Assembly (NCBI GenBank): GCA_964574355.1
Contig: CAZNMD010000003.1
Coordinates: 5,316-69,315 of the forward strand
Direction: 5' to 3'
DNA: 64,000 nucleotides
Origin: an uncultured Candidatus Saccharibacteria bacterium
GTDB taxonomy: Bacteria > Patescibacteriota > Minisyncoccia > Phycocordibacterales > DSPV01
A program made the position numbers and the translations under genes. Below, piece after piece: positions 7,888 through 56,804 of this stretch; position 1 is the first letter of the stretch, and every line of letters begins with the position of its first letter. The notes under the pieces are model-generated. The model was not told the DNA's origin and made no database searches. It saw nothing but the letters and a program-made list of their open reading frames with translations.

Positions 7888-7920
7888 AAAAACAAGGCCG
7901 TACAAAGGCCTTGTTTTTAT
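7888..7920 (+). terminator. Rho-independent terminator of ppsA.
   Basis: AAAAACAAGGCC-gtacaaa-GGCCTTGTTTTT: a 12-bp perfect stem followed by a T-run. Confidence 0.8.
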
Positions 7921-7948
7921 TGACGTAAGTATATAAATATGTTAATAT
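7920..7948 (+). promoter_or_regulatory. Near-consensus sigma-70 promoter, TTGACG-N17-TAATAT, driving the G+C-rich gene 8042..9409.
   Basis: Hexamers at 7920-7925 and 7943-7948 with a 17-nt spacer, read directly. Confidence 0.55.
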
Positions 7949-8007
7949 AGTCGAAGGTAGTACTCGATGGCACTATTGTGTTGTTCGAGGGGTGGTACAT
8001 CGAAAAC

Positions 8008-8021
8008 GGGGATATATCCCC
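8008..8021. promoter_or_regulatory. Perfect 14-bp palindrome GGGGATATATCCCC between the promoter and the RBS of the 8042 gene. It is a candidate operator.
   Basis: Read directly. It lies 20 nt upstream of a GAAAGG RBS and the GTG start. Confidence 0.4.
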
Positions 8022-8041
8022 ATCGGTAGAAAGGTTACACA

Positions 8042-9409
8042 GTGCACCATTCGAAAATTAAAATTATTGTTCATGAACGTCCTCATTGGGATGAAATCGT
8101 CGGAGTTTGGTTGGCACAAACGTATGGTGGTGGGAAGTATGTCGGCCTCGACAAGGCTGCAATTCGTTTTGTCGAAGAAGATCCTCTCGGTGGGGACAAT
8201 CGGTTTGACTCCGAAGGGTTGTATCCGATCGGTACCGGCAAGGGTCGGTGCGACGATAAGGGTCCGGATGGTAAGCGCAAGGCGGGAAAGTGTTCTGCTT
8301 TGCTTGTTGCCGAAGATCTTGGTGTCGAAAAAAACCAAGAACTCATTCTCCTTCTTGAGGAAACGCTTCATTGCGATACCCAAAAGGGGGTTCGTCTCAC
8401 ACAGCTCGCCGAAGCTTTGAAGTTGATAATGCTCAAGTTCGGTACGGCTGGTCAGGAGTTTTTTTTACAGCACTCGTTGACAGTTGTTGGTGCCATTGTG
8501 GCTCAGTGCGCGAATCGCTACACCGCCGGTCGTGGCGAGAAGGGAGCCCTCGACTTCTTTGAGGGTTTCGTCCGGAACGGAAGGTTTACCGACCAACGAA
8601 TTATCGGGTTTATGCGTAAGCAGCTCCAAATCGGAGCAGCTCATACAGAGTCGGTCACGGAGATCGACTTTGTTCTTCGGGCGATGCAGCGAAATGGTAC
8701 GTCTCTCAAAGATACCACCGAGTTTGCTCGCTTCATTCTCCAACACGTCTATCAGGTGCAGGAACACATTCGTGACCTTTCTCAGGTTATCAAGCCTGAC
8801 AACAAAACTCATCGAGGTCAAAACTCGAGGGAGTTTGTCACTACCGGCTTGTTTGATGATTGTGAGAGGCCGGTTCGTTTCATCATCGTTGATAGCGACG
8901 ATCCGTTTGCTCACCGTGCAACATCGTACCTTCGGTATGATGTTCATGTCATCAGGCAGTCAACGGGCAATGTTCAGGTCTTTGCCAACACATCGAAGGG
9001 TGTCAAACTTCATGTGGTGGCGGCGATGATTCGGTGGCTCGAGCTGCCGAGTGATCAAAAGACTGGATTCCTCGATGAGCTCGAGGACGCCGGAATAATT
9101 GAAGGTGTGTCACACTGGTACTACTTCGTGGAGGCACAGATGCTGTTTAATGGTTCGCAAACTCACACAGGTGTGCGACCGACAGAACTTGCTGGTCAGG
9201 CGATCGTTGATGTTCTTCGCCACGCGTTTCACCCACGTGAAATTGGGAAGTGGAAGGCGTTGCATGGAAAGGGTCGCTTTTCGCGTCAGGTTCGGTGTCC
9301 GGAAAGGTCGGTCAAGTCCAATGTCTCGGTCCAGTCTGCCGGGAAGGATTGGCCGACGGATATCGCCGCTGATCTCGAAAGGATTTGCAGTGGTCTCAAC
9401 GGAGAGTAA
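8042..9409 (+). CDS. Hypothetical 455-aa protein with no recognisable family. It is the G+C-rich 'island A'.
   Basis: Long uninterrupted ORF with a GTG start 7 nt after a GAAAGG RBS. It is visibly richer in GC codons than its neighbours. Several long overlapping ORFs on both strands were judged to be by-products of the GC richness. Confidence 0.6.
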   Translation: MHHSKIKIIVHERPHWDEIVGVWLAQTYGGGKYVGLDKAAIRFVEEDPLGGDNRFDSEGLYPIGTGKGRCDDKGPDGKRKAGKCSALLVAEDLGVEKNQELILLLEETLHCDTQKGVRLTQLAEALKLIMLKFGTAGQEFFLQHSLTVVGAIVAQCANRYTAGRGEKGALDFFEGFVRNGRFTDQRIIGFMRKQLQIGAAHTESVTEIDFVLRAMQRNGTSLKDTTEFARFILQHVYQVQEHIRDLSQVIKPDNKTHRGQNSREFVTTGLFDDCERPVRFIIVDSDDPFAHRATSYLRYDVHVIRQSTGNVQVFANTSKGVKLHVVAAMIRWLELPSDQKTGFLDELEDAGIIEGVSHWYYFVEAQMLFNGSQTHTGVRPTELAGQAIVDVLRHAFHPREIGKWKALHGKGRFSRQVRCPERSVKSNVSVQSAGKDWPTDIAADLERICSGLNGE

Positions 9410-9433
9410 TCTCCACACGTCTTTATGACGATC

Positions 9434-9471
9434 GAGGAGCGTACAGCGATAAGCTGGCGCTCCTTTTTTTA
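9434..9471 (+). terminator. Rho-independent terminator of the 8042..9409 gene.
   Basis: GAGGAGCG…(inner CAGC-gataa-GCTG)…CGCTCCTT followed by TTTTTTT. Confidence 0.7.
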
Positions 9472-9495
9472 TTCAATCAATGATACGATTCGGTT

Positions 9496-10836
9496 ATGGA
9501 ACAGGGAGGGTGGAAAGATTTTTTTAAAGGAAAACGAGTCACCCAGCTAGGGCTCGGTCTTTTGGGGCGAGGTGTGAATGATGCGCTTTTTTTAGCAAAG
9601 CACGGAGCGATTTTGACTGTCACTGATAAAAAAACAGCAAAAGAATTAGAGGTCTCGATTGAGAAATTAGCCGAGTATAAAGATGCTATAACATTTGTGT
9701 TGGGCGAGCACCGACTCGAAAATTTTCGTGAGTGTGATTTTGTTTTAAAAGCTGCAGGTGTGCCCCTTGATTCACCAGAAATTGCCGAAGCTCGAAAATA
9801 TGCTATCCCTGTTGAGATGGACGCTTCGCTTTTTGCCAAGCTTGCACCAAAGGGGGTGACGATAGTTGGAATTACAGGTACGCGTGGAAAATCAACGACG
9901 ACACATTTGATTTTTCATATCTTGAAAGAAGGCGGAAAGAGAGCATTTCTTGGTGGTAATGTGCGGGATATTGCAACTCTGCCACTTCTGGAAGAAGTTC
10001 AATCGGGTGATTATGTTGTGTTGGAGTTGGATAGTTGGCAATTACAAGGTTTCGGTGAAGCTAATATTTCTCCTCATGTTTCGGTGTTTACGACGTTTAT
10101 GGATGATCATCTTTTGTATTACAAAAATGATAGAGATTTATATTTCGCCGATAAAGCAAATATTTTTAAAAATCAAAAGAAGGGTGATGTGCTGATTGTG
10201 GGAGAGCAGGTTGCAGAAAAGATAAATGGAACGAAGCCTCCAGTTTCGCCGATAATTGCCCATGTTACTGACGTTGCCTCGTGGAAAACAAATTTAATTG
10301 GCGAGCATAATCAACTAAATATCGCATGTGCAGTTCTCGCAGCGCGGGCATTGAAAATTGATGAGGCTCTTATAAAAGAAGCAGTCGAAACATTCAAAGG
10401 TGTACCAGGCCGTCTTGAATTCATTCGCGAAATTAATGGTGTGAAAATCTATAACGATACAACCGCAACGACGCCGGCTGCCGTTTCGGTTGGTCTTACT
10501 GCGCTTGACCCTGAAGCGAAGAAAAATATTGTTTTAATTTGTGGTGGTTTCGATAAAGGGATTGACGCGGGTGAGCTTGTTGAAGTCATCTCGAAGCACA
10601 CCAAAGAAATCATTCTTCTTCCTGGTTCTGGTTCCGAAAAACTTTTGTCTCTTATTTCTCATCTCTCATCTCAAATATCCAGAGTTTCCACGATGTCCGA
10701 AGCTGTTGCGAAAGCCGTTAAATGTGCGAAACAAAACGATATCATCCTTCTTTCTCCTGGATTTGCGTCATTTGGTCTTTTTAAAAACGAATATGATCGA
10801 GGTGAGCAGTTTGATAGGGAAGTAAAAAATCTATAG
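9496..10836 (+). CDS. murD: UDP-N-acetylmuramoyl-L-alanine--D-glutamate ligase.
   Basis: 446 aa. Mur-ligase P-loop GITGTRGKSTTTHLIFHIL. Rossmann-like N-domain. C-terminal domain present. Confidence 0.85.
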   Translation: MEQGGWKDFFKGKRVTQLGLGLLGRGVNDALFLAKHGAILTVTDKKTAKELEVSIEKLAEYKDAITFVLGEHRLENFRECDFVLKAAGVPLDSPEIAEARKYAIPVEMDASLFAKLAPKGVTIVGITGTRGKSTTTHLIFHILKEGGKRAFLGGNVRDIATLPLLEEVQSGDYVVLELDSWQLQGFGEANISPHVSVFTTFMDDHLLYYKNDRDLYFADKANIFKNQKKGDVLIVGEQVAEKINGTKPPVSPIIAHVTDVASWKTNLIGEHNQLNIACAVLAARALKIDEALIKEAVETFKGVPGRLEFIREINGVKIYNDTTATTPAAVSVGLTALDPEAKKNIVLICGGFDKGIDAGELVEVISKHTKEIILLPGSGSEKLLSLISHLSSQISRVSTMSEAVAKAVKCAKQNDIILLSPGFASFGLFKNEYDRGEQFDREVKNL

Positions 10837-10843
10837 CAAACTA

Positions 10844-10877
10844 CTACTTGACATACATCAAGTAGTATGATAAATTG
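10844..10877 (+). promoter_or_regulatory. Perfect 9-bp inverted repeat ACTACTTGA-cataca-TCAAGTAGT with an embedded TTGACA, and a putative -10 (TAAATT) 17 nt downstream. It is a candidate promoter/operator for the sigma-factor gene.
   Basis: Read directly between the murD stop and the sigma gene. Confidence 0.4.
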
Positions 10878-10889
10878 AGTTAGGTTCTG

Positions 10890-10914
10890 TATACCAGAAG
10901 GTATACGGTTTTTC
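10890..10914 (+). terminator. Small hairpin GTATACC-agaa-GGTATAC followed by GGTTTTT. It could be a weak terminator or an attenuator-like element.
   Basis: 7-bp AT-rich stem plus a T-run. Confidence 0.3.
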
Positions 10915-10942
10915 TAAGAACTTTGTAACAAAGGAGAATAGA

Positions 10943-11710
10943 GTGAATACAACGCCTGCCAAGGACGTACCGGTTGAAGGTGAAGAACAGCAATTCTTGA
11001 ACTATCTACGGTTTACGGTTCAGATAGTTCAAACAATACTGAGTCGTCTACCTCCGCATGTCGAAAAAGATGATTTGCTATCAGTAGGACAGCTTGGTTT
11101 GCTGAAGGCGATTCGGACGTTTGATCCAAGCAAAGGTTCTACCTTCGGTGCGTATGCTCGTCATCGTATTCGCGGGGTAGTCCTCGATGAATTGCGAAAG
11201 ATGGATATCTTTCCTCGTTCGGTTCGCGAGAGAGCTCGAATGGTCGCCGAGGTGGAAGATTGTTTGGTGAATAGGTTGGGTCGGGAACCAACAGAGATGG
11301 AAATGGCGTCAGAGATGGGGCTCGGTCTTGCGGCCTATCGTAAACTGAGATCTGAGATCCAACCTGTAGACTTTTTGTGTCTTGACGATCTACCATCTTG
11401 GTTGAAAAACAACCACTATGATCATGGGCGTCATGATTGTTATGACGCTATTGCCGACCAAAGTCTTCCGCTCGGTGAGGAACTCGAGCGTCGGGATATG
11501 TTGGCGGTGGTTTATCACTCGATCAAGAGTCTTCCTCCAAGACAGCAACAAGTGCTCGCGCTGTATTACGTTGAAGGGTGGACTTTTCGAGAAATTGGAG
11601 AAGCTCTTGGTTTTACTGAGAGCTATGCTTGTATGGTTCACAAAGAGGCAATTGTGACGCTTCGTGAACATTTCCAAAAAGAAGATCGACGCTGTACATT
11701 GGCTGGGTAG
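10943..11710 (+). CDS. RNA polymerase sigma factor of the FliA/WhiG (sigma-28) family.
   Basis: 255 aa. GTG start 6 nt after AAAGGAG. Region 2 …FGAYARHRIRGVVLDELRKMD…. Region 4 …VLALYYVEGWTFREIGEALGFTESYACMVHKEAIVTLR. Confidence 0.8.
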   Translation: MNTTPAKDVPVEGEEQQFLNYLRFTVQIVQTILSRLPPHVEKDDLLSVGQLGLLKAIRTFDPSKGSTFGAYARHRIRGVVLDELRKMDIFPRSVRERARMVAEVEDCLVNRLGREPTEMEMASEMGLGLAAYRKLRSEIQPVDFLCLDDLPSWLKNNHYDHGRHDCYDAIADQSLPLGEELERRDMLAVVYHSIKSLPPRQQQVLALYYVEGWTFREIGEALGFTESYACMVHKEAIVTLREHFQKEDRRCTLAG

Positions 11711-11721
11711 GGAAATTCAAG

Positions 11722-11773
11722 CTCCGTTCGTTCAGGTAGCCGTTTAGGGCCATTTGAACGAACGGAGTTTTTC
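11722..11773 (+). terminator. Strong rho-independent terminator of the sigma-factor gene.
   Basis: CTCCGTTCGTTCA…TGAACGAACGGAG: 13-bp perfect stem followed by TTTTT. Confidence 0.8.
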
Positions 11774-11817
11774 TATTGTTCCTATTAGGCGAGAGGTTGG
11801 TTTTTTGAAATAAAAAA

Positions 11818-11840
11818 TCACCCGACAAAAAGTCGGGTGA
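11818..11840 (-). terminator. Terminator of the minus-strand gene 11853..12794.
   Basis: TCACCCGAC-aaaaa-GTCGGGTGA 9-bp stem. The T-run lies on the minus strand (plus-strand AAATAAAAAA at 11808-11817). Confidence 0.65.
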
Positions 11841-11852
11841 TGGTGTGGCTAT

Positions 11853-12794
11853 CTACGAGCCGCGATTGTAAATGACGACGAGATTTCTCATGGCTTTTTC
11901 TGCGGGTGTTTTACCACGAGCACTTGAGTGCCACATAGCTTCGCCGGTATCTGCGTAGGTGTCACCAAAAGTATCGATTTCATCATTAGCAATCTGACCT
12001 TCAGGGACGCCATGGTTGGCAAATTGCGTCCGAATGATTGCCGGTAGGCAGATTCCCCCGAATGCATTTGGGGCAAGTACACAGTAGTCGCCCAGTCGCT
12101 GGAAGTGCGCAATCAATTTCCGATTGGTGACTCCGTACTTTTGGTCAGTGGGTCGGTGGAAAAAATGTTCTCCACCGATACCGCACGTGATGAACACCTC
12201 AAGGTCTTGTGCGTGTTCGTTCCACTCAAAGAATTTGCACATAATTCCGTCGACAACGCTTTCGTGTGGTCGACTTGGCGTACCTGTTTCCAGGCGTGTT
12301 CGATCAACCAAACAATCTCGTCCAGCGTGTGCGGCGATAACTTTGCCACTAACACGAGATCGAGCAATGATGGTCGGACAATCTGCCGATGCGAGCATCA
12401 TATATTTTCCTCGCGGAATTTCACAACCATCAGCGCTTACGCCGCGGTAGATTTTTACTCCTTTACGTGGAGGCAGAGTAATTTTTTCGTGTGATAGGTC
12501 AATCTGGCCTTGATACACTTCAGTCAGTTCGTTGGGTGTGCAGATACGCGCGTTGAAGTCTGAAGGGCGGGGTGCATAGATCGAAGTTCGATCGCCGCCG
12601 CCAAATAAGGCGTTGATCAAGGAGTACGCCGAGCATTTCGCAACACCCGCGTTGTTTTTGAGTTCGGCAATGCTCCAGTCAGTTTGTCCGTCATTTCGCC
12701 CGCACAAAGTGACTTCAACGGGGCTCGTTCGGGTTCCATCACCAAACAGAGTGAAAACCCGAGTCGGTCTTGCTAATTCGATGTCCGTGTTCAT
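11853..12794 (-). CDS. YfiH/PgeF-like (Cu-oxidase_4 / DUF152) purine-nucleoside-phosphorylase / peptidoglycan-editing-factor family protein. It is the G+C-rich 'island B'.
   Basis: 313 aa. …SADC-PTIIARSRVSGKVIA-AHAGRD… matches the family signature ADC-x15-AHAGWRG with identical spacing. GC-rich codons. Confidence 0.5.
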   Translation of the reverse strand: MNTDIELARPTRVFTLFGDGTRTSPVEVTLCGRNDGQTDWSIAELKNNAGVAKCSAYSLINALFGGGDRTSIYAPRPSDFNARICTPNELTEVYQGQIDLSHEKITLPPRKGVKIYRGVSADGCEIPRGKYMMLASADCPTIIARSRVSGKVIAAHAGRDCLVDRTRLETGTPSRPHESVVDGIMCKFFEWNEHAQDLEVFITCGIGGEHFFHRPTDQKYGVTNRKLIAHFQRLGDYCVLAPNAFGGICLPAIIRTQFANHGVPEGQIANDEIDTFGDTYADTGEAMWHSSARGKTPAEKAMRNLVVIYNRGS

Positions 12795-12843
12795 TCAAGG
12801 TTCTTTCTTTTTGTTGTGGTTTACTGAAATTTTCCTGAGAGAC

Positions 12844-12870
12844 AGTATACTATTATTGACGATTTGTCAA
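12844..12870. promoter_or_regulatory. Divergent promoter region containing the palindrome TTGACGATTTGTCAA. It supplies a -35 on both strands: the minus-strand reading is TTGACA-N15/16-TATACT for 11853..12794, and the plus-strand -35 TTGACG serves murC.
   Basis: Read directly. Confidence 0.35.
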
Positions 12871-12900: not shown

Positions 12901-14243
12901 TGAAAGTTCTAAGGGCAAAAAAACCTTCAAAACAGTCGCTTAAAGTAAAAAGTTTCATTGAGCATCAACATGTCCACTTTGTGGGTATTGGTGGTTCTGG
13001 CATGTCTTCTTTGGCTCAACTTTTACATACTGATGGGCGGGTGATTACAGGGTCTGATTTAAAACCCTCAAAGGTAGCGGAGACTTTAGCGATTGCCGGA
13101 ATAAAAATTCTAATTGGTCAAGATGAGCATGCTATACCTCGGGGTGTCGAAGCTATTATTTATAGCGCCGCGATTCCCGAACTTGATCCAAAATTTTTTA
13201 AACAGCTTAAAAAAATTGGCGTTCCTTTGTATGAATATCATGAAGCTGTAGGTGAGTATGCAAATCAAAAACACACGGTTGCTATTGCTGGTACTCATGG
13301 AAAAACGACAACAACGGCAATGATCGCTTCAATTTTAAAAGCGGCGGATATTGGCGCGAGCGCTCTTGTTGGTGGCGTAATGAATGATACGGGTAGTGGC
13401 GTCTATGCGGGAACAGGAGATACGTTTGTGGTTGAAGCTGATGAGTATAAAAATGGCTTTTTGCATTTATCGCCATCAGTGTTGGTTATTACCAACATTG
13501 ATCATGATCACGTAAATTTTTTTACTGATTTGTCAGCTGTTCAAAACTCATTTAAGCAACTAATACGAAAAGTTCCTGTTGATGGAGTTATTATTTGTAA
13601 TCCGGAGGATCCTCATGTGGCTCCGGTCATTGCAAAAACAAAACATCCGGTTATTGATTACACATCGGTTTCGCTCGATGGAGTTGATCTTAAGGTTCCA
13701 GGTGAACATAATCGTAATAATGCGAAAGCGGCACTTGCGGCGGTTGGTATTCTTGGTATTTCTCCAGAAATTGCAACAAAAACACTTTCACATTTTTCAG
13801 GTACAGGTCGACGATTTGAATATAAAGGAAAAATGAAAAACGGTGCGCTTGTATACGATGATTATGCCCATAATTCTCAAAAGGTTTCTGCTGCGATTGC
13901 AGGTGCGCGCGAAGCATTTCCAGATAAAAAAGTAACAGTTGTTTTTCAGCCACACCTCTTTAGCCGAACACGCGCTTTCTTGGGAGATTTTGCGAAAGCG
14001 TTATCTTTGGCAGATTCCATTATTGTCACTGATATTTATGCAGCTCGTGAGAAATTAGATTTATCAGTTACCGCGAAAGATCTTGTTAGAGAGATACATA
14101 AACTTAATAAAAACGTTTCGCATAGTTCCGTTTTTGGGGAAGTGGTGAGTGAATTATGTATGAATGCGAGTGAAAAAGATTTGATTATGACGATGGGGGC
14201 CGGAGATATTACAAAGGTGTCAGATTTGTTGGTAGCTGCTTAG
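12901..14243 (+). CDS. murC: UDP-N-acetylmuramate--L-alanine ligase.
   Basis: …HFVGIGGSGMSSLAQLL…, …AIAGTHGKTTTTAMIASIL…. The ORF track extends to TTG 12864, but that codon sits inside the promoter palindrome, so ATG 12901 is preferred. Confidence 0.85.
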
Positions 14244-14244
14244 C

Positions 14245-14925
14245 ATGAGTACTCTCTACGTCGTCGCTACGCCTATAGGAAATCTTGAGGATATATCACC
14301 TCGAGCGCTTCGGATTTTGTCTGAAGTCGATGTCATTCTTTGTGAGGATACGCGAGTTACTAGAAAACTGTTATCGCATTTTGGAATTTCTACCAAAACA
14401 ATTTCATACCACGCAAGAACGGAAGTTTTGAAACTTGACTACGTTCTTTCTTTTTTTGAAGAAGGGAAAAATGTTGCACTTGTATCAGATGCCGGTACCC
14501 CAGCAATATCAGATCCGGGGGCAATTTTGGTTAAGGAAGTTCGAAAAAAGTTTCCAGAGGTGAATATTGTGGCTATTCCAGGGCCATCAGCGCTTACCGC
14601 AGCAGTATCAATTGCTGGTCTTTTGGTTTCAGATTTTACATTTCTTGGATTTTTGCCTCATAAAAAGGGTAGAGAGACGTTATTTAAAGAGATTAGAGAG
14701 TCTTCACGAACGATGGTGTTTTACGAGTCTCCCCATCGAATTGAAAAAACGCTTGAATCATTATCGATATATCTCGCTCCTGATCGTACTGTTAGTATTT
14801 GTCGAGAACTGACAAAAATGTATGAAAGTGTTATTTCTGGTAATCCTGATTTTGTAAAAAATCATTTTGCGACACATACAGATCAGGTGAGGGGAGAATT
14901 TGTTGTTATTGTTTCTCCAAAATAA
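14245..14925 (+). CDS. rsmI: 16S rRNA (cytidine1402-2'-O)-methyltransferase, tetrapyrrole-methylase family.
   Basis: MSTLYVVATPIGNLEDISPRALRIL…VILCEDTRVTRKLL. It starts 1 nt after the murC stop. Confidence 0.85.
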   Translation: MSTLYVVATPIGNLEDISPRALRILSEVDVILCEDTRVTRKLLSHFGISTKTISYHARTEVLKLDYVLSFFEEGKNVALVSDAGTPAISDPGAILVKEVRKKFPEVNIVAIPGPSALTAAVSIAGLLVSDFTFLGFLPHKKGRETLFKEIRESSRTMVFYESPHRIEKTLESLSIYLAPDRTVSICRELTKMYESVISGNPDFVKNHFATHTDQVRGEFVVIVSPK

Positions 14926-14964: not shown

Positions 14965-15342
14965 CTAAGATACTAGGTGAGTTTGTAGGATTTCTTCGTA
15001 GTTTAGTAGTTGATGGTGTCCTGGCGGAAATAAAGTAAGATTTTCGCTGTTTGAAAAAAGAACAACTGTACCGTCTTTGGGTTGGGTTTGTTGAAGCTTG
15101 AGGTCTTCAAATTTTTGCATGACAGTAGAGGTTTCTCCTGATGGTGCCCAGCCTCGGCACTCTTTTGAAGCCGCGGTTGGATTACGCAGCTCAAGTAAGG
15201 GGCAAATTTCTACCCAAATCCGATAGGTTCGCCCTTCTTTGTGTGCGAGAACATCTACAATTCTGCCTCGATAGGTGCAATCTCTTGTTTGGCTTTGAAT
15301 ATCTCCACCGATAAAATTTCGGAAATTGATCGGTTCTTTCAC
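14965..15342 (-). CDS. Hypothetical protein, 125 aa.
   Basis: ORF only. No recognisable motif. Confidence 0.4.
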   Translation of the reverse strand: MKEPINFRNFIGGDIQSQTRDCTYRGRIVDVLAHKEGRTYRIWVEICPLLELRNPTAASKECRGWAPSGETSTVMQKFEDLKLQQTQPKDGTVVLFSNSENLTLFPPGHHQLLNYEEILQTHLVS

Positions 15343-16855: not shown

Positions 16856-16890
16856 CTCCTTCATGAGTTTTTAATTTTCCACTTTCTCTA

Positions 16891-16919
16891 TAGACAAGTC
16901 TGTATGGTAGGTATACACT
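16891..16919 (+). promoter_or_regulatory. Promoter-like TAGACA-N17-TACACT.
   Basis: Read directly upstream of the GC-rich island at 16.9–17.3 kb. Confidence 0.35.
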
Positions 16920-16925
16920 TATCTA

Positions 16926-17233
16926 CCGGGTAACGGGCTTTATCGGACGTTAGCTTACTGGCTAGCGGAGCCTGTGTTTCAATACAATCAGTGATGGAAA
17001 GATAGTTGCTATGAGTGAATCCAAGAAGGATGGTCCTAAACAGGTCGGAAAAGCGACAGCTGCTCAAATTCTCGGTGATTACGGTAGGGCAGCGGGCCCT
17101 CCTCGCCAAATCGTTTCTGAACCGGGACAGCCGATTAGGGAAGAGAGGCGCTGTATTACACCTCTGAACGCTCATCTGTTCGGCTGTTCCAGTGTCATCC
17201 ATCGGACCTAGAGTAAGGTCTTTCGTGTCGTTT
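16926..17233 (+). other. G+C-rich, apparently structured transcribed island. It is either a structured ncRNA or the leader plus coding region of a 66-aa GC-rich small protein (ORF 17011..17211, preceded by a GGAAAG RBS).
   Basis: Its composition differs from the flanks. It lies between a promoter-like element and a strong terminator. No tmRNA, RNase P P4 or SRP domain-IV signature could be confirmed by eye. Confidence 0.3.
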
Positions 17234-17274
17234 ACCCCCGAATCCAGTAGCAGGATTCGGGGGTGAATTTTTTT
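17234..17274 (+). terminator. Rho-independent terminator.
   Basis: CCCCCGAATCC-agtagca-GGATTCGGGGG 11-bp perfect stem, then TGAA and TTTTTTTT. Confidence 0.75.
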
Positions 17275-17304
17275 TGTGCATGAATAAGGTACTTCCCTTC
17301 GGGA

Positions 17305-20747: not shown

Positions 20748-21887
20748 ATGGTACCAAAACGCATTCTTATATTTTCATATGCATACGCACCTCTTGTTGG
20801 AGGGGCAGAAGTTGCAGTTCGTGAAATTACTGATCGTATTTCATCAAGCGAAATTGAATTCGATATGGTCACTGCGCGACCAAAAAATACAGTACCTGTT
20901 GAGAAAATAGGTAACGTCACCGTATATCGTGTTGGTGGTATTGGCGGGTTATGGAAATTTTTATTTCCGTATATTGCTTTTAGGAAAGCAAAAAAACTTC
21001 ATCAGAAGAAACCGTATCAAGGGGTGTGGTCTATTATGGCAGCCTATGCTGGTTTTGCTACAAGTTTTTTCAAAAAAAGATTCCCAGATGTTCCTTTTAT
21101 ATTAACGCTTCAAGAGGGGGATCCTCCAGAATACATTAGGCGAAAGGTTCGATTTGTTCGTCCGTTGTTTCGTACTATTTTTAAACGAGCTGACAAAATT
21201 CAGGCTATTTCTTCGTATCTTGGAATATTTGCAAAAGAAGAAGGTGCTAAAGTTGTACCTAGTGTGATTGGTAATGGTGTTGATGTTTCTTTATTTTCTA
21301 AAAAAATTACAGTGAGTGAGCGTCAGGCACTTCGTCGACCGTATGGTATTGATGATAACGATATTGTGCTTTTTACGGCATCTCGGCTAGTTACCAAAAA
21401 TGCGGTTGATGTGATTATGAGATCTCTCGTTTTACTTTCGCCTACCGTGAAGCTTGTTATCGCTGGTGATGGTCCCGAACGTCTGCGGCTTGAATCTTTG
21501 GCAAAAGAGCAGGGAGTTGCTAATCGAGTTTGTTTTTTGGGAACAGTTTCTTATGCCGAGTTGCCTCGATGGTATCAGGCAGCTGATATCGTTACTCGTC
21601 CGAGCCGATCTGAAGGATTTGGAAATGTTTTTGCAGAAGCGATGGCGGCAGGTGTTCCAGTGATTGCCACGTCAGTTGGAGGAATTCCCGATATTGTTAT
21701 AGATGGAAATACAGGCCTTGTTTGTCAGGTTGATGATCCAAAAGATTTGGCTCACAAGATTGAGACGCTCATCGCGGATCAATCCTTAAGACAACGTCTC
21801 GTTCAAAACGGTCTTATCCTTGTTGGAGAAAAATATGATTGGGAGGTCATTGCCCAAAGGATGAAAAAAGAAGTCTTCGGGGTGTAG
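20748..21887 (+). CDS. Glycosyltransferase family 4 (GT-B).
   Basis: …SRSEGFGNVFAEAMAAGVPVIATSVGGIPDIV…. Confidence 0.8.
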   Translation: MVPKRILIFSYAYAPLVGGAEVAVREITDRISSSEIEFDMVTARPKNTVPVEKIGNVTVYRVGGIGGLWKFLFPYIAFRKAKKLHQKKPYQGVWSIMAAYAGFATSFFKKRFPDVPFILTLQEGDPPEYIRRKVRFVRPLFRTIFKRADKIQAISSYLGIFAKEEGAKVVPSVIGNGVDVSLFSKKITVSERQALRRPYGIDDNDIVLFTASRLVTKNAVDVIMRSLVLLSPTVKLVIAGDGPERLRLESLAKEQGVANRVCFLGTVSYAELPRWYQAADIVTRPSRSEGFGNVFAEAMAAGVPVIATSVGGIPDIVIDGNTGLVCQVDDPKDLAHKIETLIADQSLRQRLVQNGLILVGEKYDWEVIAQRMKKEVFGV

Positions 21888-21906: not shown

Positions 21907-21935
21907 TTGACATAGCATTTTTTACATGCTATTAT
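21907..21935 (+). promoter_or_regulatory. Near-consensus sigma-70 promoter TTGACA-N17-TATTAT for the GC-rich 'island C'.
   Basis: Read directly. Confidence 0.5.
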
Positions 21936-22025
21936 TCAAACCAGATAGTTTTCGTTTTGCTGTTTGAAACCTCAACAAAGTCACGTCCTAAAAGGTTGTG
22001 GCGCAATGAAGAAAGGTCGGTAATC

Positions 22026-42060: not shown

Positions 42061-42065
42061 GCTTT

Positions 42066-43160
42066 TTATGTCGTCGTGTGTTTTGGTTCTTTAACATGTT
42101 GTTTCCCAGCTTTTACGGTCATGAAAAGGAAGGGAGAAATCCATTTTCGAACAAAAGGGTAATTGGTGGCATTGTGATCGTGGTGAAGATGCAACTGTGT
42201 TTCTTTGAGCCATTCGTATACTTCATCATATGTATGGTGGGTCGCTATAGGTGCAGTGTACCAGTCAAAAATATAGTGAGGGTGTGCTTCCCATCGAACA
42301 AATGCATTGATTATTTTATGGAGGAAGGTGTGAGGAATGAGAGATGCAATAAATGCTCCTATTTTTGAAAGTTGGTACATTAAAGAAAGGGGAAGGTGGG
42401 TTGTGATTGCTCGCGTTGTTGCATCCACGATTTCGTATATAAAATTTCCCTTATGATACAGGTGGATAGTGATTTTTCCTTGTTCTGTAAGTAAAGGAAC
42501 AAGCGAGAGAAAAGCTCCTTTTGCGTTTCCGGTGTGCATAAGGACACCGTTTGAGAAAATAAAGTCGAAAGAGCTGTTTTTAAAGGGAAGTTTAAAAAGG
42601 TCCGCCTGAACAATATGAGCTTTTGGATTTTCGTGAAGATTATTTTCGGCAGCATCCACTGCGTGTGAAAGGTCGACGCTCACAACTTCCGCGCCATAGT
42701 CGAGTGCGATTTTTGAATAGCGGCCATTACCACAGCCGGCATCAAGGACCAGCTTGCCTTTAATTTCTTCAGGTGTAAAAAGCACTTTGTAATCAAAGTG
42801 ACGCTTCGCCCCTTCTGGGGTTTGTCCTTCTCCCCAACCAAATTTGTTCCATGTTTCCCATTCGCTCCCGAAGTTTTTTATGGTTTCTTTTTTTAGTTTG
42901 GAAATATGTTGAGCATTTATTGTTGCTCCGCTTTTTCTAATTTCGTTTTCATATTGTTCAGTAAATTTTTCGTGTCGAGAAAAAGCGTCAGGTAAAAAAC
43001 GTGGAACGTATGAGACGAGCGGATATGTTGTTTGGCAATGTGTGCATATAAAAATTCCATCAGCAATATTTCCAGAAGTATCTGGTTTTGAAAAAGAGGT
43101 AAAAGAGATTTCTCCCTTACATGAGGGACAACAGAGAAGAGGAAGAAGGGTGGTGCGCAT
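42066..43160 (-). CDS. Class I SAM-dependent methyltransferase with an N-terminal Trm112-like zinc ribbon.
   Basis: CCPSCKG…CTHCQTTYPLVSYVPRFL; …VLDAGCGNGRYS…. The ORF extends to 43247, but the ATG at 43160 is preferred because it avoids overlap with the downstream GT and has an AGGA RBS. Confidence 0.65.
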   Translation of the reverse strand: MRTTLLPLLCCPSCKGEISFTSFSKPDTSGNIADGIFICTHCQTTYPLVSYVPRFLPDAFSRHEKFTEQYENEIRKSGATINAQHISKLKKETIKNFGSEWETWNKFGWGEGQTPEGAKRHFDYKVLFTPEEIKGKLVLDAGCGNGRYSKIALDYGAEVVSVDLSHAVDAAENNLHENPKAHIVQADLFKLPFKNSSFDFIFSNGVLMHTGNAKGAFLSLVPLLTEQGKITIHLYHKGNFIYEIVDATTRAITTHLPLSLMYQLSKIGAFIASLIPHTFLHKIINAFVRWEAHPHYIFDWYTAPIATHHTYDEVYEWLKETQLHLHHDHNATNYPFVRKWISPFLFMTVKAGKQHVKEPKHTTT

Positions 43161-43203
43161 GGAGACAATCCTAACAGTTTTTTTGAACTTGGTCAGGTGG
43201 GAT

Positions 43204-44355
43204 TTAGAGTGTTCTATCAAGGCGACGAATAAAAGCGAGAATGTCATTGGCCCGTTTCTCCCAAGTGTAGTTTTGAGCTCGGTCGTGAGCTGTTGCGCCT
43301 AATTTTGCCGCTCGTTGTTTATCATGAAGTGCTGATGAGAATACTTGCGCAAGTGATTCAGGGTTATCTGCGGTGAAAAAGAGTGCGCAGGTTTCATCGA
43401 GAATTTCTCGTAATGAGGGCAGATTTGAAGCGATAATTGCTTTTCCCATAGCCATTGCTTCAAATAATTTGAGGGGTGAAGTGTGATGACTTCCTAAGCG
43501 TTCCTTGCCCGATGTGGGGATAATGACGTAGTCCGCTGCCTGAAGGTAGTCCGGAATTTTTGTGTGTGGCTGTTGACCTTCAAAACGGACCCGAGCTTTA
43601 ATTTTTCTTGCTTTTTCCTTTAACTCAGTTTCATATCCCGCACCTCCTCCCACGATGATAACTTCCTGATTTTCTTTGAGGTGTACTGAAGCTTCAACAA
43701 GCGTATCGACACCCTTCCATTTAAAAAGTTGTCCGGTATAGACCACAATTTGTTTTTTTTGGTCAATGCCGAGTATTTTTCGGGCGTCTTCTTTGGTTTT
43801 GTTTGAAGAAAAACGAGTAAGATCAACGGCGTCGGGGGCAACAAACAGTTTGTGGGCAGGTGCTCCGACGGCGATTAATTCGTTGCGTAAGTTTTGAGTA
43901 ATACAAATAATGGCGATACAACGTTCAAAAGCTTCTTTGAATCTTTCTGGGCGATTTGGGACCGTGTGTGTTTCGTATACGGTCGGTAAACCGCTTTCTG
44001 CGAGACGAATGAAGGTTTGATCATCGCGTATGTAGTAAATGTCAGCGGTATTTTTTTGAGCATCTTTGTGTGCATTTTTTGCAAAAGAACGATACAGCAA
44101 GGCATATGGTATTTTTCCCAAAAGAGGCGCTAAAGGGGTCAGGTTTAGAATCGGTAGTGTTCGTAAAGAAAAAGTAGGAGGAATAGTATAGTAGGCAAAG
44201 AGTTCAGTTTCTGATTTTTTTTGGGTATATCTTCTGGGGATGACAAGTTCTACCTCTGCACCTGCCGCCGCAAAGGCCTGACACATGGAGACGATTTGAA
44301 TGCCGTGAGCTTTTTCTGTTGGTAGCCGGGCACTAGTAAGGTAGCGTAGTTTCAT
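43204..44355 (-). CDS. Glycosyltransferase family 4.
   Basis: …GKERLGSHHTSPLKLFEAMAMGKAIIASNLPSLREIL…. Confidence 0.75.
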   Translation of the reverse strand: MKLRYLTSARLPTEKAHGIQIVSMCQAFAAAGAEVELVIPRRYTQKKSETELFAYYTIPPTFSLRTLPILNLTPLAPLLGKIPYALLYRSFAKNAHKDAQKNTADIYYIRDDQTFIRLAESGLPTVYETHTVPNRPERFKEAFERCIAIICITQNLRNELIAVGAPAHKLFVAPDAVDLTRFSSNKTKEDARKILGIDQKKQIVVYTGQLFKWKGVDTLVEASVHLKENQEVIIVGGGAGYETELKEKARKIKARVRFEGQQPHTKIPDYLQAADYVIIPTSGKERLGSHHTSPLKLFEAMAMGKAIIASNLPSLREILDETCALFFTADNPESLAQVFSSALHDKQRAAKLGATAHDRAQNYTWEKRANDILAFIRRLDRTL

Positions 44356-44363
44356 TGATGATA

Positions 44364-46190
44364 TTAGACAGTGAGTTTATAGCGTTCAAAAAAATCTGCA
44401 AGAACAAAGATTGCATAATAACTATGCCCTAGAATAGGGAGCATTTCTTTCAGCCCGTTTCTGGTTTGCGTTTTATGTATACCAATATCAATCGTTGGTA
44501 TAAGGCCAGGGAAGGTTTTTTTGTACCATTCGAGGGCAGACAGGAGTTTTTCTGTCTGATGTTCGGCTAGTAGTTGCGAAATGGGAACACTGAAACCCTC
44601 TTTTTTTCGTTCAATAAGATTTTCTTTCAGTGTTGTTTTTAAGAATCGGCGAAGGGGTATTTTTCCGGTCTTACCTTCTCGTTTCCAGGTTGCTGGAGCG
44701 CCACCAACCAGGCGGAATAATTTTCGGTCAAGTAACGGGACTCGTCCCTCGATTCCATGGGCCATAGTTGTGGTATCGATTTTTAACAAGAGCTTATCAG
44801 GGAGAGCAATAAGTCGGTCAAATGCTAAACCTCGATCGGGGGTTTCTCGTTCTTTAATTCGTCCGCGAATACGTTCTTTAATTGAAGCATCTTGAACTAA
44901 ACCGGCGGAGGTGGCTGTTTCGGTTAAAAACAAACCAAGCGCGTCGCCGCGAATTGTTTTTATTCGACGAGTAATACCCCGGGCTATACGTAGGGGAAAA
45001 TGGGCAGGAGATAGAGGGAAGCCGAGACGTATGAGCGCATCAAGGGTTTTTCCTGTTCGTCCTGATTGAATGTCTGCAGAAAGGCCGGCAAGACGTTTTG
45101 CTCGTGGGTATCCGCCAAAAAGTTCGTCTCCCCCCTCTCCGGAGAGAACAACTTTTACTTCTTCTTTGGCTAATTTTGAAACGGTGTAGGTTGGCATTAG
45201 TGATGAGTCTCCAAGGGGTTCGTCCATGTGTGCGAGAGCTTCTTCGAGGAGTGTATTTGCGTGTGTTTCTGAAAGAGTGAATGTGTTTAATTTTATACCG
45301 CAATGCTCAGTAATCTTTCTTGCAAATTCAATATCCTTTTTCCCAGGAACTTCTACATGAAAGGCGGTTAGATGAACCCCTAGTTCTTTTAATGTGAGAG
45401 CAAGAACAGAAGAATCGATTCCACCTGAAAAGAAGAGACCTACAGGCACATCGGCAATGAGATGATGTTTTACAGAGTCAAAGAGGGTGGTTTTGAGCTC
45501 GTCGTCAGTTGGGGGTTCTTTGGTGGGTGCTTCAAGGCGAGATATATAAGATTTTTCTGTTGTATCAATAACATTAATGAGGATACTTTCTCCAGGGAGA
45601 AGGGAACGAGCATTTTTTAGTATTGTTTTTGGGGCAACGATGTAGCCCAAGAAAACAAGATCGCGCACGGCCTCGTGATCAATAGTCTTATTAATTTCTG
45701 GTAGAGCGAGTAATCCTCGAATTTCTGAGGATAATGCTATTGTTTTTTCATCTCGGTATAGGTATAAGGGTTTAATTCCAAAATGATCTCGTGAAAGAAA
45801 GAGTGTTTTGTTGTCACGATCATAAATTGCAAAAGCCCACATACCACGAAAGAGATCGACGCATGAAGGACCCCATTTTTCGTAGGCATATAAAATTACT
45901 TCAGTATCTGATCCTCCGCGGAAAGTTACACCAAGATGTTCAAGTTCATTTCTAAGGGTTGCGGCGTTATATACTTCACCATTGTAGACAATTGTGTAGC
46001 GACCATTTTGTGTGGTCATTGGTTGCGCCCCTGTTTCAGTAAGATCAACTATGGAAAGTCGATTATGACCAAGTGTGCATTGTGGAAACAGGGCGATGTT
46101 TGTCTGGTCTGGCCCACGATGAGCCGTGGCTTGATTCATGGCTTTAATCGCCTTTTCGTTGTTACCAAGGATACCATTGATGCCACACAT
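44364..46190 (-). CDS. asnB: Asparagine synthetase (glutamine-hydrolysing).
   Basis: MCGINGILG… N-terminal nucleophile. …LSGGIDSS… PP-loop. Confidence 0.85.
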   Translation of the reverse strand: MCGINGILGNNEKAIKAMNQATAHRGPDQTNIALFPQCTLGHNRLSIVDLTETGAQPMTTQNGRYTIVYNGEVYNAATLRNELEHLGVTFRGGSDTEVILYAYEKWGPSCVDLFRGMWAFAIYDRDNKTLFLSRDHFGIKPLYLYRDEKTIALSSEIRGLLALPEINKTIDHEAVRDLVFLGYIVAPKTILKNARSLLPGESILINVIDTTEKSYISRLEAPTKEPPTDDELKTTLFDSVKHHLIADVPVGLFFSGGIDSSVLALTLKELGVHLTAFHVEVPGKKDIEFARKITEHCGIKLNTFTLSETHANTLLEEALAHMDEPLGDSSLMPTYTVSKLAKEEVKVVLSGEGGDELFGGYPRAKRLAGLSADIQSGRTGKTLDALIRLGFPLSPAHFPLRIARGITRRIKTIRGDALGLFLTETATSAGLVQDASIKERIRGRIKERETPDRGLAFDRLIALPDKLLLKIDTTTMAHGIEGRVPLLDRKLFRLVGGAPATWKREGKTGKIPLRRFLKTTLKENLIERKKEGFSVPISQLLAEHQTEKLLSALEWYKKTFPGLIPTIDIGIHKTQTRNGLKEMLPILGHSYYAIFVLADFFERYKLTV

Positions 46191-53459: not shown

Positions 53460-53464
53460 AAAAT

Positions 53465-54936: not shown

Positions 54937-54946
54937 CCGTACTGAT

Positions 54947-56023
54947 ATGGCATATAAAGCAAAAATTTTTGGAGCGGGTTCAATCGGTAATCATTTGGCG
55001 CAAGCGTGTCGTCGGGCAGGGTGGGATGTGGTGGTTGTTGATCGGGACCCAAAAGCGTTGAAACGGATGAAAGAGGAAATTTATCCAACACGTTATGGTG
55101 CATGGGATGACGCCATCCAACTTTTTGAATCTGGCAAGGACCCGAAAGGTAGCTTCGATGCTATTTTTATCGGAACGCCGCCCCATGTGCGTATGCCGAT
55201 TGCCATGGAAGCACTTGCAGAAAAACCAAAAGTGCTTCAGTTGGAAAAACCCCTTGGTATGCCATCTTTGGAGGGTATTGCACCGTTTGTTGCGAAGGTA
55301 AAAAAAGGAAAAACTGCGGTGATTGTGGGCTATGATCATTCTGTTTCGGATGCGGCAGAGTTTATTGTTTCACTTCTCAGATCAAATACGATTGGTGGCA
55401 TTGAAACACTTGATGTTGAATTTCGTGAACATTGGGGAGGAATATTTAAGGCCCACCCATGGCTTTCTGGGCCAGCTGATACATACTTGGGTTTTACAGA
55501 AAAAGGTGGTGGCGCATCAGGTGAGCATTCACACGCGATGCACTTGTGGATTTATTTGGCTAAAATTGCAGGCTTTGGTTCACCGAAAGGGGTTTCAGCA
55601 ATGTATGAATGGCGAAAAGAAGGAAAAGCGGTTTATGATGCGATTGCAACATTTTCACTTTTAACGGATAAAAAGAAAGTTGGTCGCGTTGTTCAAGATG
55701 TGGTGACATCACCAACTCGAAAGTGGATCCGCGTGCAAGGAAAAAATGGTTTTATTGAGTGGTACTGCAATGGTAAGCCAGAGGGTGACCATGTTATTTG
55801 GAAGGTTGGTGATCAGCCGATTAGCGAAAAAGTTTTTCCCAAAAAACGTCCCGATGATTTTTTCCGTGAAGTACAGCATATAGAGGCGATTCTTTCAGGT
55901 AAGGTGAAAGCAAAAGATTCTCCGATGTCGCTTCAGAATGCTCTTGATGTTATGAGTGTTCTTTCGGCTGCAAGGAAAAAGAAAGGGGTTGTTTCGACGC
56001 CTGTAAAATTAATAAAGGCCTAG
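54947..56023 (+). CDS. Gfo/Idh/MocA-family oxidoreductase.
   Basis: KIFGAGSIGNHLAQACRRAGWDVVVVDRD…. Confidence 0.6.
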   Translation: MAYKAKIFGAGSIGNHLAQACRRAGWDVVVVDRDPKALKRMKEEIYPTRYGAWDDAIQLFESGKDPKGSFDAIFIGTPPHVRMPIAMEALAEKPKVLQLEKPLGMPSLEGIAPFVAKVKKGKTAVIVGYDHSVSDAAEFIVSLLRSNTIGGIETLDVEFREHWGGIFKAHPWLSGPADTYLGFTEKGGGASGEHSHAMHLWIYLAKIAGFGSPKGVSAMYEWRKEGKAVYDAIATFSLLTDKKKVGRVVQDVVTSPTRKWIRVQGKNGFIEWYCNGKPEGDHVIWKVGDQPISEKVFPKKRPDDFFREVQHIEAILSGKVKAKDSPMSLQNALDVMSVLSAARKKKGVVSTPVKLIKA

Positions 56024-56031
56024 TGTGCTTG

Positions 56032-56059
56032 TTGACTTTTTTGTGAAGCATAGTATTTT
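56032..56059 (+). promoter_or_regulatory. Promoter-like TTGACT-N16-TATTTT. Its -10 lies only about 8 nt before the ATG, so the mRNA may be leaderless.
   Basis: Read directly. Confidence 0.35.
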
Positions 56060-56067
56060 GCGTTTGT

Positions 56068-56739
56068 ATGTCGCACTTAGTTCTTTCATTTGATGTTGAT
56101 GGGACACTCACAAGGCGTGGTGAGCCGCTTAAACAAGAAGCGTGGGATCTACTTCTACGTGGTCGACCAATGGATGTATGGGAAGCGCTGCTCAAGGCTC
56201 GGGATAAGTATTCTGGAGGCAAGGGTTCTCGGTACGATATTATTCGAGAAATGCTCCAAGAAATTGGTGTTACAGGCGGAGAGCTTGAGATGAAAACAGA
56301 AGAGTGGGCAGAAGCATATCAGGTGGCGGTCATGTCGCTGATCCGTGCTGATTTTCGGCCAGAAGCGAGATCGGTCTTGGAGACTCTCAAAGAGCGATAT
56401 AGGCTCTATGTGAATTCCGCGACAGAAGAGGAAGGCCTGAAGAGGTGTTTAGCGGAAGTTGATTTCTCACAATTCTTCGAAGAGATATTTGGCTACCCCA
56501 AAGATGGTAGTCGAAAGAAAACTGACAACCTCCGGTTGATTCTTCAGGTTGAAGGCGTGGACCCAGAACGTTTGATTCACGTCGGTGATTCAAAATCTGA
56601 TGTCGACGCGGCTCACGCGGTCGGGTGTATCTTTATTGGTGTTGCAAATGATGACAATAGGTGGGTTCCAGAGCGAGAACCCTTTGTCGTAGTTCATTCG
56701 CTTTCTGACCTCGAAGAGGCTATCGACACTGTTTTATAG
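56068..56739 (+). CDS. HAD-superfamily phosphatase. It is the G+C-rich 'island F'.
   Basis: Motif I FDVDGTL. Motif IV …GDSKSDVDAA…. GC-rich codons. Confidence 0.65.
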   Translation: MSHLVLSFDVDGTLTRRGEPLKQEAWDLLLRGRPMDVWEALLKARDKYSGGKGSRYDIIREMLQEIGVTGGELEMKTEEWAEAYQVAVMSLIRADFRPEARSVLETLKERYRLYVNSATEEEGLKRCLAEVDFSQFFEEIFGYPKDGSRKKTDNLRLILQVEGVDPERLIHVGDSKSDVDAAHAVGCIFIGVANDDNRWVPEREPFVVVHSLSDLEEAIDTVL

Positions 56740-56756
56740 GAGAACACAAAAAAGTA

Positions 56757-56786
56757 AACGCTACCCCTTGCACGGGTGGCGTTTTT
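56757..56786 (+). terminator. Terminator of the HAD gene.
   Basis: AACGCTACCCC-ttgcac-GGGTGGCGTT followed by TTTT. Confidence 0.7.
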
Positions 56787-56804
56787 CACTATAGTGTACC
56801 CACG

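Follow-up and report, generated by a model that had tools for sequence, protein, structure and literature searches.

Why should an AT-rich genome carry scattered single genes that are conspicuously richer in G+C than everything around them? We addressed this question in a 64-kb stretch (64,000 nucleotides, hereafter the window; 41.7% G+C) of contig CAZNMD010000003.1, which comes from the metagenome-assembled genome of an uncultured patescibacterium. An initial annotation had singled out six such genes, here called islands 1 to 6, and had read them as repeated acquisitions of foreign single-gene cassettes. Our analysis points to a related answer, which we consider probable: the islands would be unrelated, self-sufficient accessory genes, imported at different times from other, GC-richer Patescibacteria.

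Composition was measured on 50 long open reading frames (ORFs), 43 of which are backbone genes with a GC content at third codon positions (GC3) of 0.310 ± 0.033 (range 0.25–0.37). All six islands stand out from this background, as the initial annotation had proposed, with GC3 z scores of 3.7–8.9 and codon-usage distances of 0.35–0.68, expressed as Karlin's B against same-strand backbone genes (backbone 0.24 ± 0.06). By this distance islands 3 (0.68), 4 (0.49) and 1 (0.49) rank first and island 6 (0.42) fifth in the window, while the minus-strand islands 2 and 5 become milder outliers after strand control (0.35–0.38). Sliding-window GC is about 0.40 off the islands and peaks at 0.49–0.52, with one peak over each of them. 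A further GC-rich gene, absent from the original list, encodes a FliA-like sigma factor at 10943–11710. The interval 16926–17233, which had been put forward as a seventh GC-rich candidate, is not itself an ORF, its frame being broken by 8 stops.

The islands also have the architecture of separate transcription units. The TTGAC-type promoter-like sites reported earlier for most of them were all found: TTGACA-N18-TATAAT (12/12 consensus positions) and TTGACA-N17-TATTAT (11/12), the two near-perfect sites, at 25767–25796 and 21907–21935, together with TTGACG-N17-TAATAT and TTGACT-N16-TATTTT. A strong hairpin followed by a T-run lies 3′ of every island, which bears out the private terminators; the hairpin of island 3 is common to a convergent deacetylase gene. 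Islands 2 and 5 had been described as the only reverse-strand genes in otherwise co-directional operons, but the genes at 14965–15342, 22733–23782 and 41410–46190 are also on the minus strand.

The recipient can be placed by its conserved genes. A search with MurD returned 80 loci from uncultured Patescibacteria (Taylorbacteria, Kaiserbacteria and Paceibacterota), here numbered L001 to L080, at no more than 57% identity; with its best murD match at 57%, the window has no near kin in the scanned set of species representatives from the genome collection, and no exact-protein matches of window genes were found on other contigs. The loci of the relatives share the gene order murD-murC-rsmI-DUF4015-virD4-like-LTD-GT1 (LTD, lamin-tail domain; GT1, glycosyltransferase). 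The backbone of the window encodes PPDK, MurD, MurC, RsmI, a DUF4015 protein, a VirD4-like ATPase and a lamin-tail/PKD protein, and the region from ~20.7 to 62 kb is a single large glycan and nonulosonic-acid cluster. The recipient is a Paceibacteria-type genome of the candidate phyla radiation (CPR). Locus GC among the relatives has a median of 0.51 (range 0.32–0.62), so the lineage of the window is AT-rich within an order of mostly intermediate GC.

This lineage is also strongly strand-asymmetric. At four-fold degenerate sites, plus-strand genes have C at 0.08–0.14 and G at 0.17–0.24, and minus-strand genes have C at 0.21–0.29 and G at 0.07–0.12, with GC3 of 0.31–0.36 in the minus-strand backbone genes. 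Cumulative GC skew climbs monotonically, which places the entire window on one replichore.

Island 4 and its variable-protein family

Island 4, which encodes 238 aa, lies between an ATP-grasp gene and the glycosyltransferase gene GT1b. In the relative L082 (78% amino-acid identity at the ATP-grasp gene), the ATP-grasp gene runs directly into GT1b, providing an empty site, and the window can be aligned to L082 left and right of island 4, the two alignments overlapping by 34 bp. The cassette is bounded by a 36-bp direct repeat with perfectly matching copies, and no other long direct repeat occurs in the 64 kb. Sequence upstream of the left copy matches L082, and 3 of the orthologous 34 nt are different in L082. 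Because the two copies are identical, the left one is a non-functional stub and L082 differs at three positions, the insertion must be very recent. With the empty site and the duplication, island 4 is a proven recent insertion.

Metagenomic homologues of island 4 have in common an N-terminal module of 46 aa and a 5′ untranslated region (5′UTR), both conserved; their C-terminal parts are related to that of the window gene in some and different in others. The C-terminal 187 aa of island 4 are 38–45% identical to homologues in L083, L084, L087 and L088. In these four loci the last 121–126 nt of the gene are repeated nearby at 81–89% identity, and 75 of the 77 mismatches between template repeat (TR) and variable repeat (VR) fall at TR adenines. 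An RVT_1 reverse transcriptase (RT) gene is adjacent in L084 and L087, and L087 also has a bAvd-like gene. From these features, the L084 and L087 loci are complete diversity-generating retroelements (DGRs), and the island-4 homologues in all four loci are DGR variable proteins. The neighbouring genes in L088 and L083 are homologous to those of the L084 and L087 loci. DGRs are common in CPR genomes and sometimes act on remote targets; among cellular DGRs, Roux et al. report one clade that is confined to Patescibacteria (PMC8144416).

The 3′ end of island 4 aligns to these VRs and contains 8.9% A, compared with 26.8% in the rest of the gene. An A-tolerant scan and BLAST found no TR for this VR in the window, and no RVT_1 reverse transcriptase occurs among the window ORFs scanned, a set that did not include those at 90–5345, 58438–60879 and 61002–62054. 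Given the VR alignment, the scarcity of A and the lack of a TR or RT in the window, we infer that island 4 is a solitary or remote DGR target.

The 5′UTR of island 4 holds three GGATAnGTY boxes, out of five such sites in the window, and has a folding z score of −4.7. Considered as a motif upstream of all islands, GGATAnGTY proved specific to island 4. Conserved leaders are also present in L086 (about 1290–1437) and in L087 and L088 (about 5850–6000), and L086 to L088 have an extra insert, GCTACAGCAG...CTGCTGTGGC, that is apparently structured. No Rfam family matched leaders of the island-4 type.

Junctions and occupants of the remaining islands

Between murD and murC the window carries a convergent pair, the sigma gene and island 2. 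The sister contig L081, an independent assembly from a different sample, has no counterpart of window positions 10837–12838 and carries a NUDIX gene there instead. In a survey of 57 relatives, murD and murC are separated by as little as 2 bp and as much as 3612 bp. The 0–3 genes in between belong to about 35 unrelated families overall; a glutamate-racemase-like gene was seen in nine of the loci, and NUDIX genes occur in six (five surveyed loci and L081). This survey drew on L001 to L080, and the slot of the window itself extends over 10837–12863. The sigma gene and island 2 are one inserted segment, which, by comparison with L081, would have arrived after the two lineages split. The idea that the islands are separate acquisitions, not one element, is thus upheld by the empty site of island 4 in L082, by the replacement of sigma gene and island 2 by NUDIX in L081, and by the empty junction of island 3 in other relatives (below).

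The sigma protein scored 183.3 bits against TIGR02479 (FliA/WhiG; cut-off 189.6), with regions 2, 3 and 4 present. No sigma-28-type promoter of the form TAAA-N15-GCCGATAA was found in the window. We rejected a sigma-28 regulon, as the window lacks a matching promoter and its CCGATAA sites are unlinked to the islands. Homologues of the YfiH-like island 2 hold the same slot on the same strand in L008, L019 and L033.

Island 3 lies at a second variable junction. The genes GT1a (20748–21887) and GT1b (26816–27826) are 4.9 kb apart in the window and adjoin, with 17–43 bp between them, in 6 of 10 relatives. In L090, L091 and L092 no gene stands between the upstream GT1 gene and the deacetylase gene, leaving the island-3 junction empty; in these more distant loci the deacetylase/ATP-grasp module abuts the glycosyltransferase gene. 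Island 3 (212 aa), which has the highest GC3 (0.61) and the highest B in the window, would be lineage-specific, its empty junction being seen only at this greater distance. Homology of island 3 to the slot genes of L002 and L008 was unsupported by BLASTP or Pfam. A different AT-rich relative, L029, has an unrelated GC-rich single ORF without a Pfam match at its own GT1a–GT1b junction (10411–10788).

The comparison with relatives that had been suggested for detecting empty sites thus yielded them for island 4 (L082) and island 3 (L090 to L092), showed the sigma gene and island 2 replaced by other content in L081, and yielded none for island 1, whose orthologue is present at the same place in L081. 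There, PPDK, the island-1 orthologue (75% amino-acid identity) and murD follow each other as in the window, with an alignable junction. The orthologue has a GC3 of 0.52 compared with 0.22–0.32 in its neighbours, and its synonymous divergence from island 1 (dS ~1.4) is within the backbone range of 1.1–2.0. In L002, a homologue of 32% identity lies directly upstream of murD, with a GC3 of 0.62 against 0.22–0.31. Since both homologues occupy the same locus, island 1 is either old or has been repeatedly replaced in situ; on the L081 alignment it would predate the split from that lineage, which lies at a synonymous distance of about 1.1–1.4. An AT-rich relative, L001, has an unrelated GC-rich single ORF upstream of murD (4795–5364), without a Pfam match.

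The 455-aa product of island 1 belongs to a family without functional characterisation, which comprises 767 representative clusters and has conserved His/Asp motifs, including H-x3-H-x-DE and GGG[RK]FDEH. The family profile matched nothing in Pfam or PDB, and 20 sampled members were likewise without a Pfam family. Both protein searches agreed in placing two sequences from metagenomes (P0002 and P0004) nearest to island 1. A likeness to MYG1/DHH is unsupported. AlphaFold2 models built from a single sequence or a 4-sequence alignment were unusable for island 1 (pLDDT 42.7) and island 5 (pLDDT 36.5).

The functional labels first given to the other islands fared unevenly. Island 6 is a HAD phosphatase, with 63.1 bits against PF00702 (cut-off 26.4, E 6e-17) and an N-terminal SFDVDGT. 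The YfiH-like and DUF218-like labels of islands 2 and 3 fall just under the Pfam cut-offs: island 2 scored 22.2 bits against Cu-oxidase_4 (YfiH/PgeF; cut-off 22.9, E 1e-4) with partial coverage and had no match in NCBIfam or PDB, and island 3 scored 25.0 bits against DUF218 (SanA/YdcF-like; cut-off 27.6). The GT-A-like label of island 5 drew no database support, with no match in Pfam, NCBIfam, PHROG or PDB; what speaks for it is the VVDGSPD motif and a predicted alternating strand/helix pattern. Islands 5 and 6, both in the glycan cluster, may have been imported as well.

Table 1. Coordinates of the islands, their junctions and related features (window positions unless a locus is named).
Feature	Position	Strand	Details
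Island 1 transcription unit	7920–9470	+	Promoter-like site 7920–7948; coding sequence (CDS) 8042–9409, GC3 0.531, z 6.6; terminator about 9434–9470
Variable murD–murC slot	10837–12838		Convergent pair, sigma gene (+) and island 2 (−); no counterpart in L081
Sigma gene, seventh GC-rich gene	10943–11710	+	GC3 0.42, z 3.2
Terminators in the murD–murC slot	about 11721–11773; 11817–11841	+; −	One per gene
Island 2	11853–12794	−	GC3 0.474, z 4.9
Leader, small ORF and terminator	16856–17304	+	Non-coding leader about 16856–17010; ORF 17011–17211; terminator 17230–17268
Island 3 transcription unit	21907–22735	+	Promoter TTGACA-N17-TATTAT 21907–21935; CDS 22026–22664, GC3 0.607, z 8.9; hairpin terminator
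Left 36-bp repeat copy	25676–25711	+	Original upstream context and first 34 nt of GT1b; 17-codon stub
Island 4 cassette	25712–26813	+	Promoter 25767–25796; 5′UTR 25797–25902; CDS 25903–26619, GC3 0.481, z 5.1; hairpin/terminator 26639–26669 (15-bp arms)
Island 4 VR-like 3′ end	about 26497–26616	+	A-poor
Right 36-bp repeat copy	26814–26849	+	Functional start of GT1b (26816–27826)
Island 5	38463–39244	−	CDS 38504–39244 (246 aa), GC3 0.478, z 5.0; terminator 38463–38487; VVDGSPD motif
Island 6	56032–56788	+	Promoter-like site 56032–56059; CDS 56068–56739, GC3 0.432, z 3.7; terminator about 56756–56788
DGR loci	L084 329–2710; L087 6001–8563; L088 6001–7780; L083 3140–4285		TR/VR mismatches nearly all A-specific

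Donors and alternative explanations

Under import from other Patescibacteria, the lineage would have drifted to ~41% GC and a strong strand skew while most relatives of the order stand at ~50%. Because the lineage is AT-drifted and skewed, any import looks GC-rich and unskewed here. Genes would have entered or been swapped at a few recombination-prone junctions, namely upstream of murD, between murD and murC, between GT1a and GT1b, and inside the glycan cluster. A plausible route begins with natural transformation, after which homologous recombination would replace the content of a slot, with the conserved synteny around the islands serving as flanking homology; for island 4, illegitimate or Campbell-type integration may apply. 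The events would differ in age, island 4 being very recent, the sigma gene with island 2 later than the split from L081, and island 1 earlier than it. As an own promoter is needed for expression and a terminator spares the flanking operons, the cassette architecture may reflect survivorship.

Several observations agree with donors of this kind. Across 67 loci, ORFs that are outliers toward high GC3 occur in AT-rich loci (median 0.32), and those toward low GC3 occur in loci that are themselves GC-rich (median 0.61); with the window left out, the Mann-Whitney test gives p = 7.5e-5. The outliers are thus opposite to host GC, as expected of imports regressing to the clade mean. At four-fold sites the islands have about as much C as G and are unskewed, like the core genes of mid-GC relatives such as L008, and the strand skew of the backbone explains most of the apparent NNT-to-NNC shift of the islands. 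Codon usage of the islands correlates best with relatives whose loci have a GC3 of ~0.5 (peak r 0.65), a suggestive but weak signal. Wherever homologues of islands 1, 2 and 4 have genomic context, they are on Patescibacteria-like contigs. In a published survey, 83% of transfers into Patescibacteria came from other Patescibacteria (PMC12455944).

Other observations weigh against this explanation. Apart from the sister genome, the nearest homologues of the islands are 32–49% identical, and for no island did a donor sequence turn up that was closer than 35–49%. We found no mobility genes or shared end motifs at the islands, and the window holds neither tRNA genes nor tRNA targets. Whether the islands move by a shared mechanism had been left undecided by the initial annotation; a search of their flanks for common short repeats and terminal inverted repeats found only the direct repeat of island 4, and no shared signature. 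The presence/absence comparison covers islands 1 to 4, with none for islands 5 and 6, and island 6 fits its context functionally, with an oxidoreductase gene on one side and, on the other, a NeuB-like gene from a nonulosonic-acid pathway of the NeuA/NeuB type. The YfiH-like homologues of island 2 have the highest GC3 of their locus in 5 of 5 relatives, GC-rich hosts included, and the relatives of island 4 are GC-richer than their neighbours in most of six loci (a near-tie in L087).

Island 1 adds a quantitative difficulty. Its GC3 of ~0.52 is unskewed in both the window and L081, at a backbone four-fold distance of ~1.06 substitutions per site. Decay at the backbone rate needs an ancestral GC at four-fold sites (GC4) of ~0.9 (bootstrap confidence interval 0.67 to >1) and predicts a four-fold identity to L081 of 0.35 (0.30–0.40), whereas 0.54 was observed. 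Between the window and L081, four-fold G and C are conserved at 51–61% in island 1 compared with 21–27% in the backbone. Slow amelioration and a stationary composition of its own fit island 1 equally well (log-likelihoods −384.3 and −386.1), and both models require ~0.5 times the backbone synonymous rate. This hints at some constraint or later exchange, rather than passive decay. That C at the NNY sites of island 1 is distributed almost independently in the window and L081 does not prove compositional equilibrium; amelioration predicts the same joint frequencies, and the likelihoods are inseparable.

These points feed the strongest alternative, to which we give a clearly lower but appreciable chance: the accessory families are mostly vertical, or swapped between orthologous slots, and are kept GC-rich by a specific force, with synonymous-site selection and GC-biased gene conversion at recombination hot spots as candidates. 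It would account for the high GC that island 1 shows at one and the same locus in three genomes (the window, L081 and L002), against backbones of 0.22–0.33, as well as for its conserved G and C and halved rate. The odds of C over T and of G over A are shifted alike in islands 1 and 3, by ~2.6–3.4-fold, as a strand-symmetric force would do. The GC excess among YfiH-like and island-4 relatives makes a family-intrinsic, GC-favouring force a live secondary explanation. Set against it, the stationary model is no better than slow amelioration for island 1, island 4 is demonstrably a new arrival, and the GC-low outliers in GC-rich relatives are not predicted. Moreover, most murD–murC occupants in other AT-rich relatives are as AT-rich as their hosts, so slot position alone does not raise GC. 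A stronger variant, which we hold to be rather doubtful, would combine a GC excess actively maintained in accessory families with a reading of the 36-bp duplication as the integrase-free planting of solitary DGR-target cassettes into CPR gene starts.

The initial annotation had supposed a GC-richer donor, conceivably the host of an episymbiont. A GC-richer source agrees with the GC of the order, but derivation of the cassettes from a non-CPR host is improbable. It would suit the higher GC of the islands together with the enrichment of Cys, Arg and Gln in their proteins, as marks of a different compositional background, and the nearest homologues of islands 3, 5 and 6 are without taxonomic placement. 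However, every homologue with context is on a Patescibacteria-like contig, Ala (0.91-fold) and Pro (0.94-fold) are not enriched as expected of high-GC donors, and GC2, the GC content at second codon positions, is backbone-like. The metagenome-derived closest relatives of island 1 and its 20 sampled family members without a Pfam family also argue against a host source, as do the complete DGRs of the island-4 family, which are on Patescibacteria-like contigs (L084 and L087).

We judge it slightly less probable still that the islands are highly expressed genes in which translational selection favours C-ending codons. The largest shifts do concern NNY codons (TTC 0.49 vs 0.12, ATC 0.48 vs 0.13, AAC 0.58 vs 0.23), ATA, AGA, TTA and GGG are avoided in the islands, and islands 3 and 4 have near-consensus promoters. 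But the C excess is largely gone after strand control, C in the minus-strand backbone being already at 0.21–0.29. The rise of CCG, TCG, CGG, AAG and CAG and the fall of CGT amount to general GC enrichment, not to a tRNA-driven pattern. Further, the island proteins are poorly conserved accessory enzymes, and the window lacks a highly expressed reference set such as ribosomal proteins.

A phage vector found no support in the PHROG scan, which matched only generic sigma-factor (sigma gene) and HAD-hydrolase (island 6) families, or in searches of viral contigs, which found no relatives of islands 1, 3, 4, 5 and 6. Chimeric joins from a co-assembled GC-richer organism, a thought prompted by the metagenomic source and by the identical 36-mers around island 4, are very improbable given that the independently assembled L081 has island 1 at the same place with an alignable junction, that flanking ORFs are intact with matching terminators at the islands, and that a chimera would need the same 36-mer at both ends, itself implying a real duplication.

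Neighbouring elements and known systems

Near the interval once listed as a GC-rich gene lies a conserved element of another kind (16.9–17.3 kb). About 170 nt are 93% identical to L081, compared with 74–80% for coding DNA, and the element folds with a z score of −3.5. Its small ORF encodes 66 aa and is conserved in L081 with an in-frame 3-nt indel, and its terminator has a 16-bp stem. It had no Rfam match, and we regard it as a candidate cis-regulatory leader or riboswitch with a small protein. The relative L002 (contig GC 0.40) has two GC-rich patches without a credible ORF, at 2300–2880 (0.66 GC) and about 14000–14400 (0.52 GC), which may be non-coding RNAs; the DUF4015 and virD4-like genes flank the second patch, which thereby occupies the slot of this element in the window. 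Outside the islands, a 1751-aa ORF at 90–5345 combines an unusually high GC2 (0.50) with a low GC3 (0.29), and possibly encodes a large surface protein.

Horizontally acquired genomic islets are detected by their atypical composition and then undergo amelioration, in the framework of Lawrence and Ochman. The islands resemble such islets, and horizontal gene transfer as described for Patescibacteria (PMC12455944), in their atypical GC3 and codon usage, patchy presence, conserved-gene junctions and mostly within-phylum donors. They differ in that their GC exceeds that of the recipient, whereas many bacteria acquire genes that are AT-richer than their own, and in that each is a single gene lacking an integrase, a tRNA target and insertion sequences. 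Contrary to the amelioration expectation, island 1 has ameliorated more slowly than the backbone rate predicts. Unlike classical mobile genomic islands, the set has no integrase, transposase, phage genes or tRNA target, and a repeat only at island 4.

Polysaccharide clusters of the O-antigen or capsule type are mosaic hot spots of gene exchange, and enterobacterial ones are usually AT-richer than their genome throughout. Islands 3 to 6 likewise sit in a glycan/nonulosonic-acid cluster of ~40 kb, with nested insertions between glycosyltransferase genes; unlike in enterobacteria, the cluster is of backbone composition and only single genes deviate. Integron cassettes offer another parallel, as recurrent single-gene units in series within an orientation-tolerant region. 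They are, however, usually promoterless, end in attC and lie beside intI, whereas each unit here has its own promoter and terminator, and the islands showed no attC-like site, no integrase and no end sequence in common. With DGR variable proteins (PMC8144416), island 4 shares homologues that show adenine-specific VR/TR mismatches, an adjacent RT and bAvd, as well as a hairpin after the VR, and it aligns to the VRs and is A-depleted there. It departs from complete DGRs as a solitary promoter-ORF-terminator cassette, set with a 36-bp duplication at the start of a glycosyltransferase gene, with no TR in the window and no Avd or RT among the window ORFs scanned. Ordinary within-phylum gene turnover and a DGR target are known processes, of which the window is a new instance.

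What the window offers is a concrete, coordinate-level view of how an ultra-small, host-dependent bacterium may renew its cell-envelope and glycan genes, by taking up self-expressing single genes from relatives at a small number of exchange-prone junctions. Two details deserve attention, a recently inserted, solitary gene of the DGR type flanked by a 36-bp target duplication and an old island that resists the pressure toward AT and strand skew. GC-rich islands in an episymbiont need not be genes of its host; they may be within-phylum exchange as seen from a lineage that has itself drifted toward AT.

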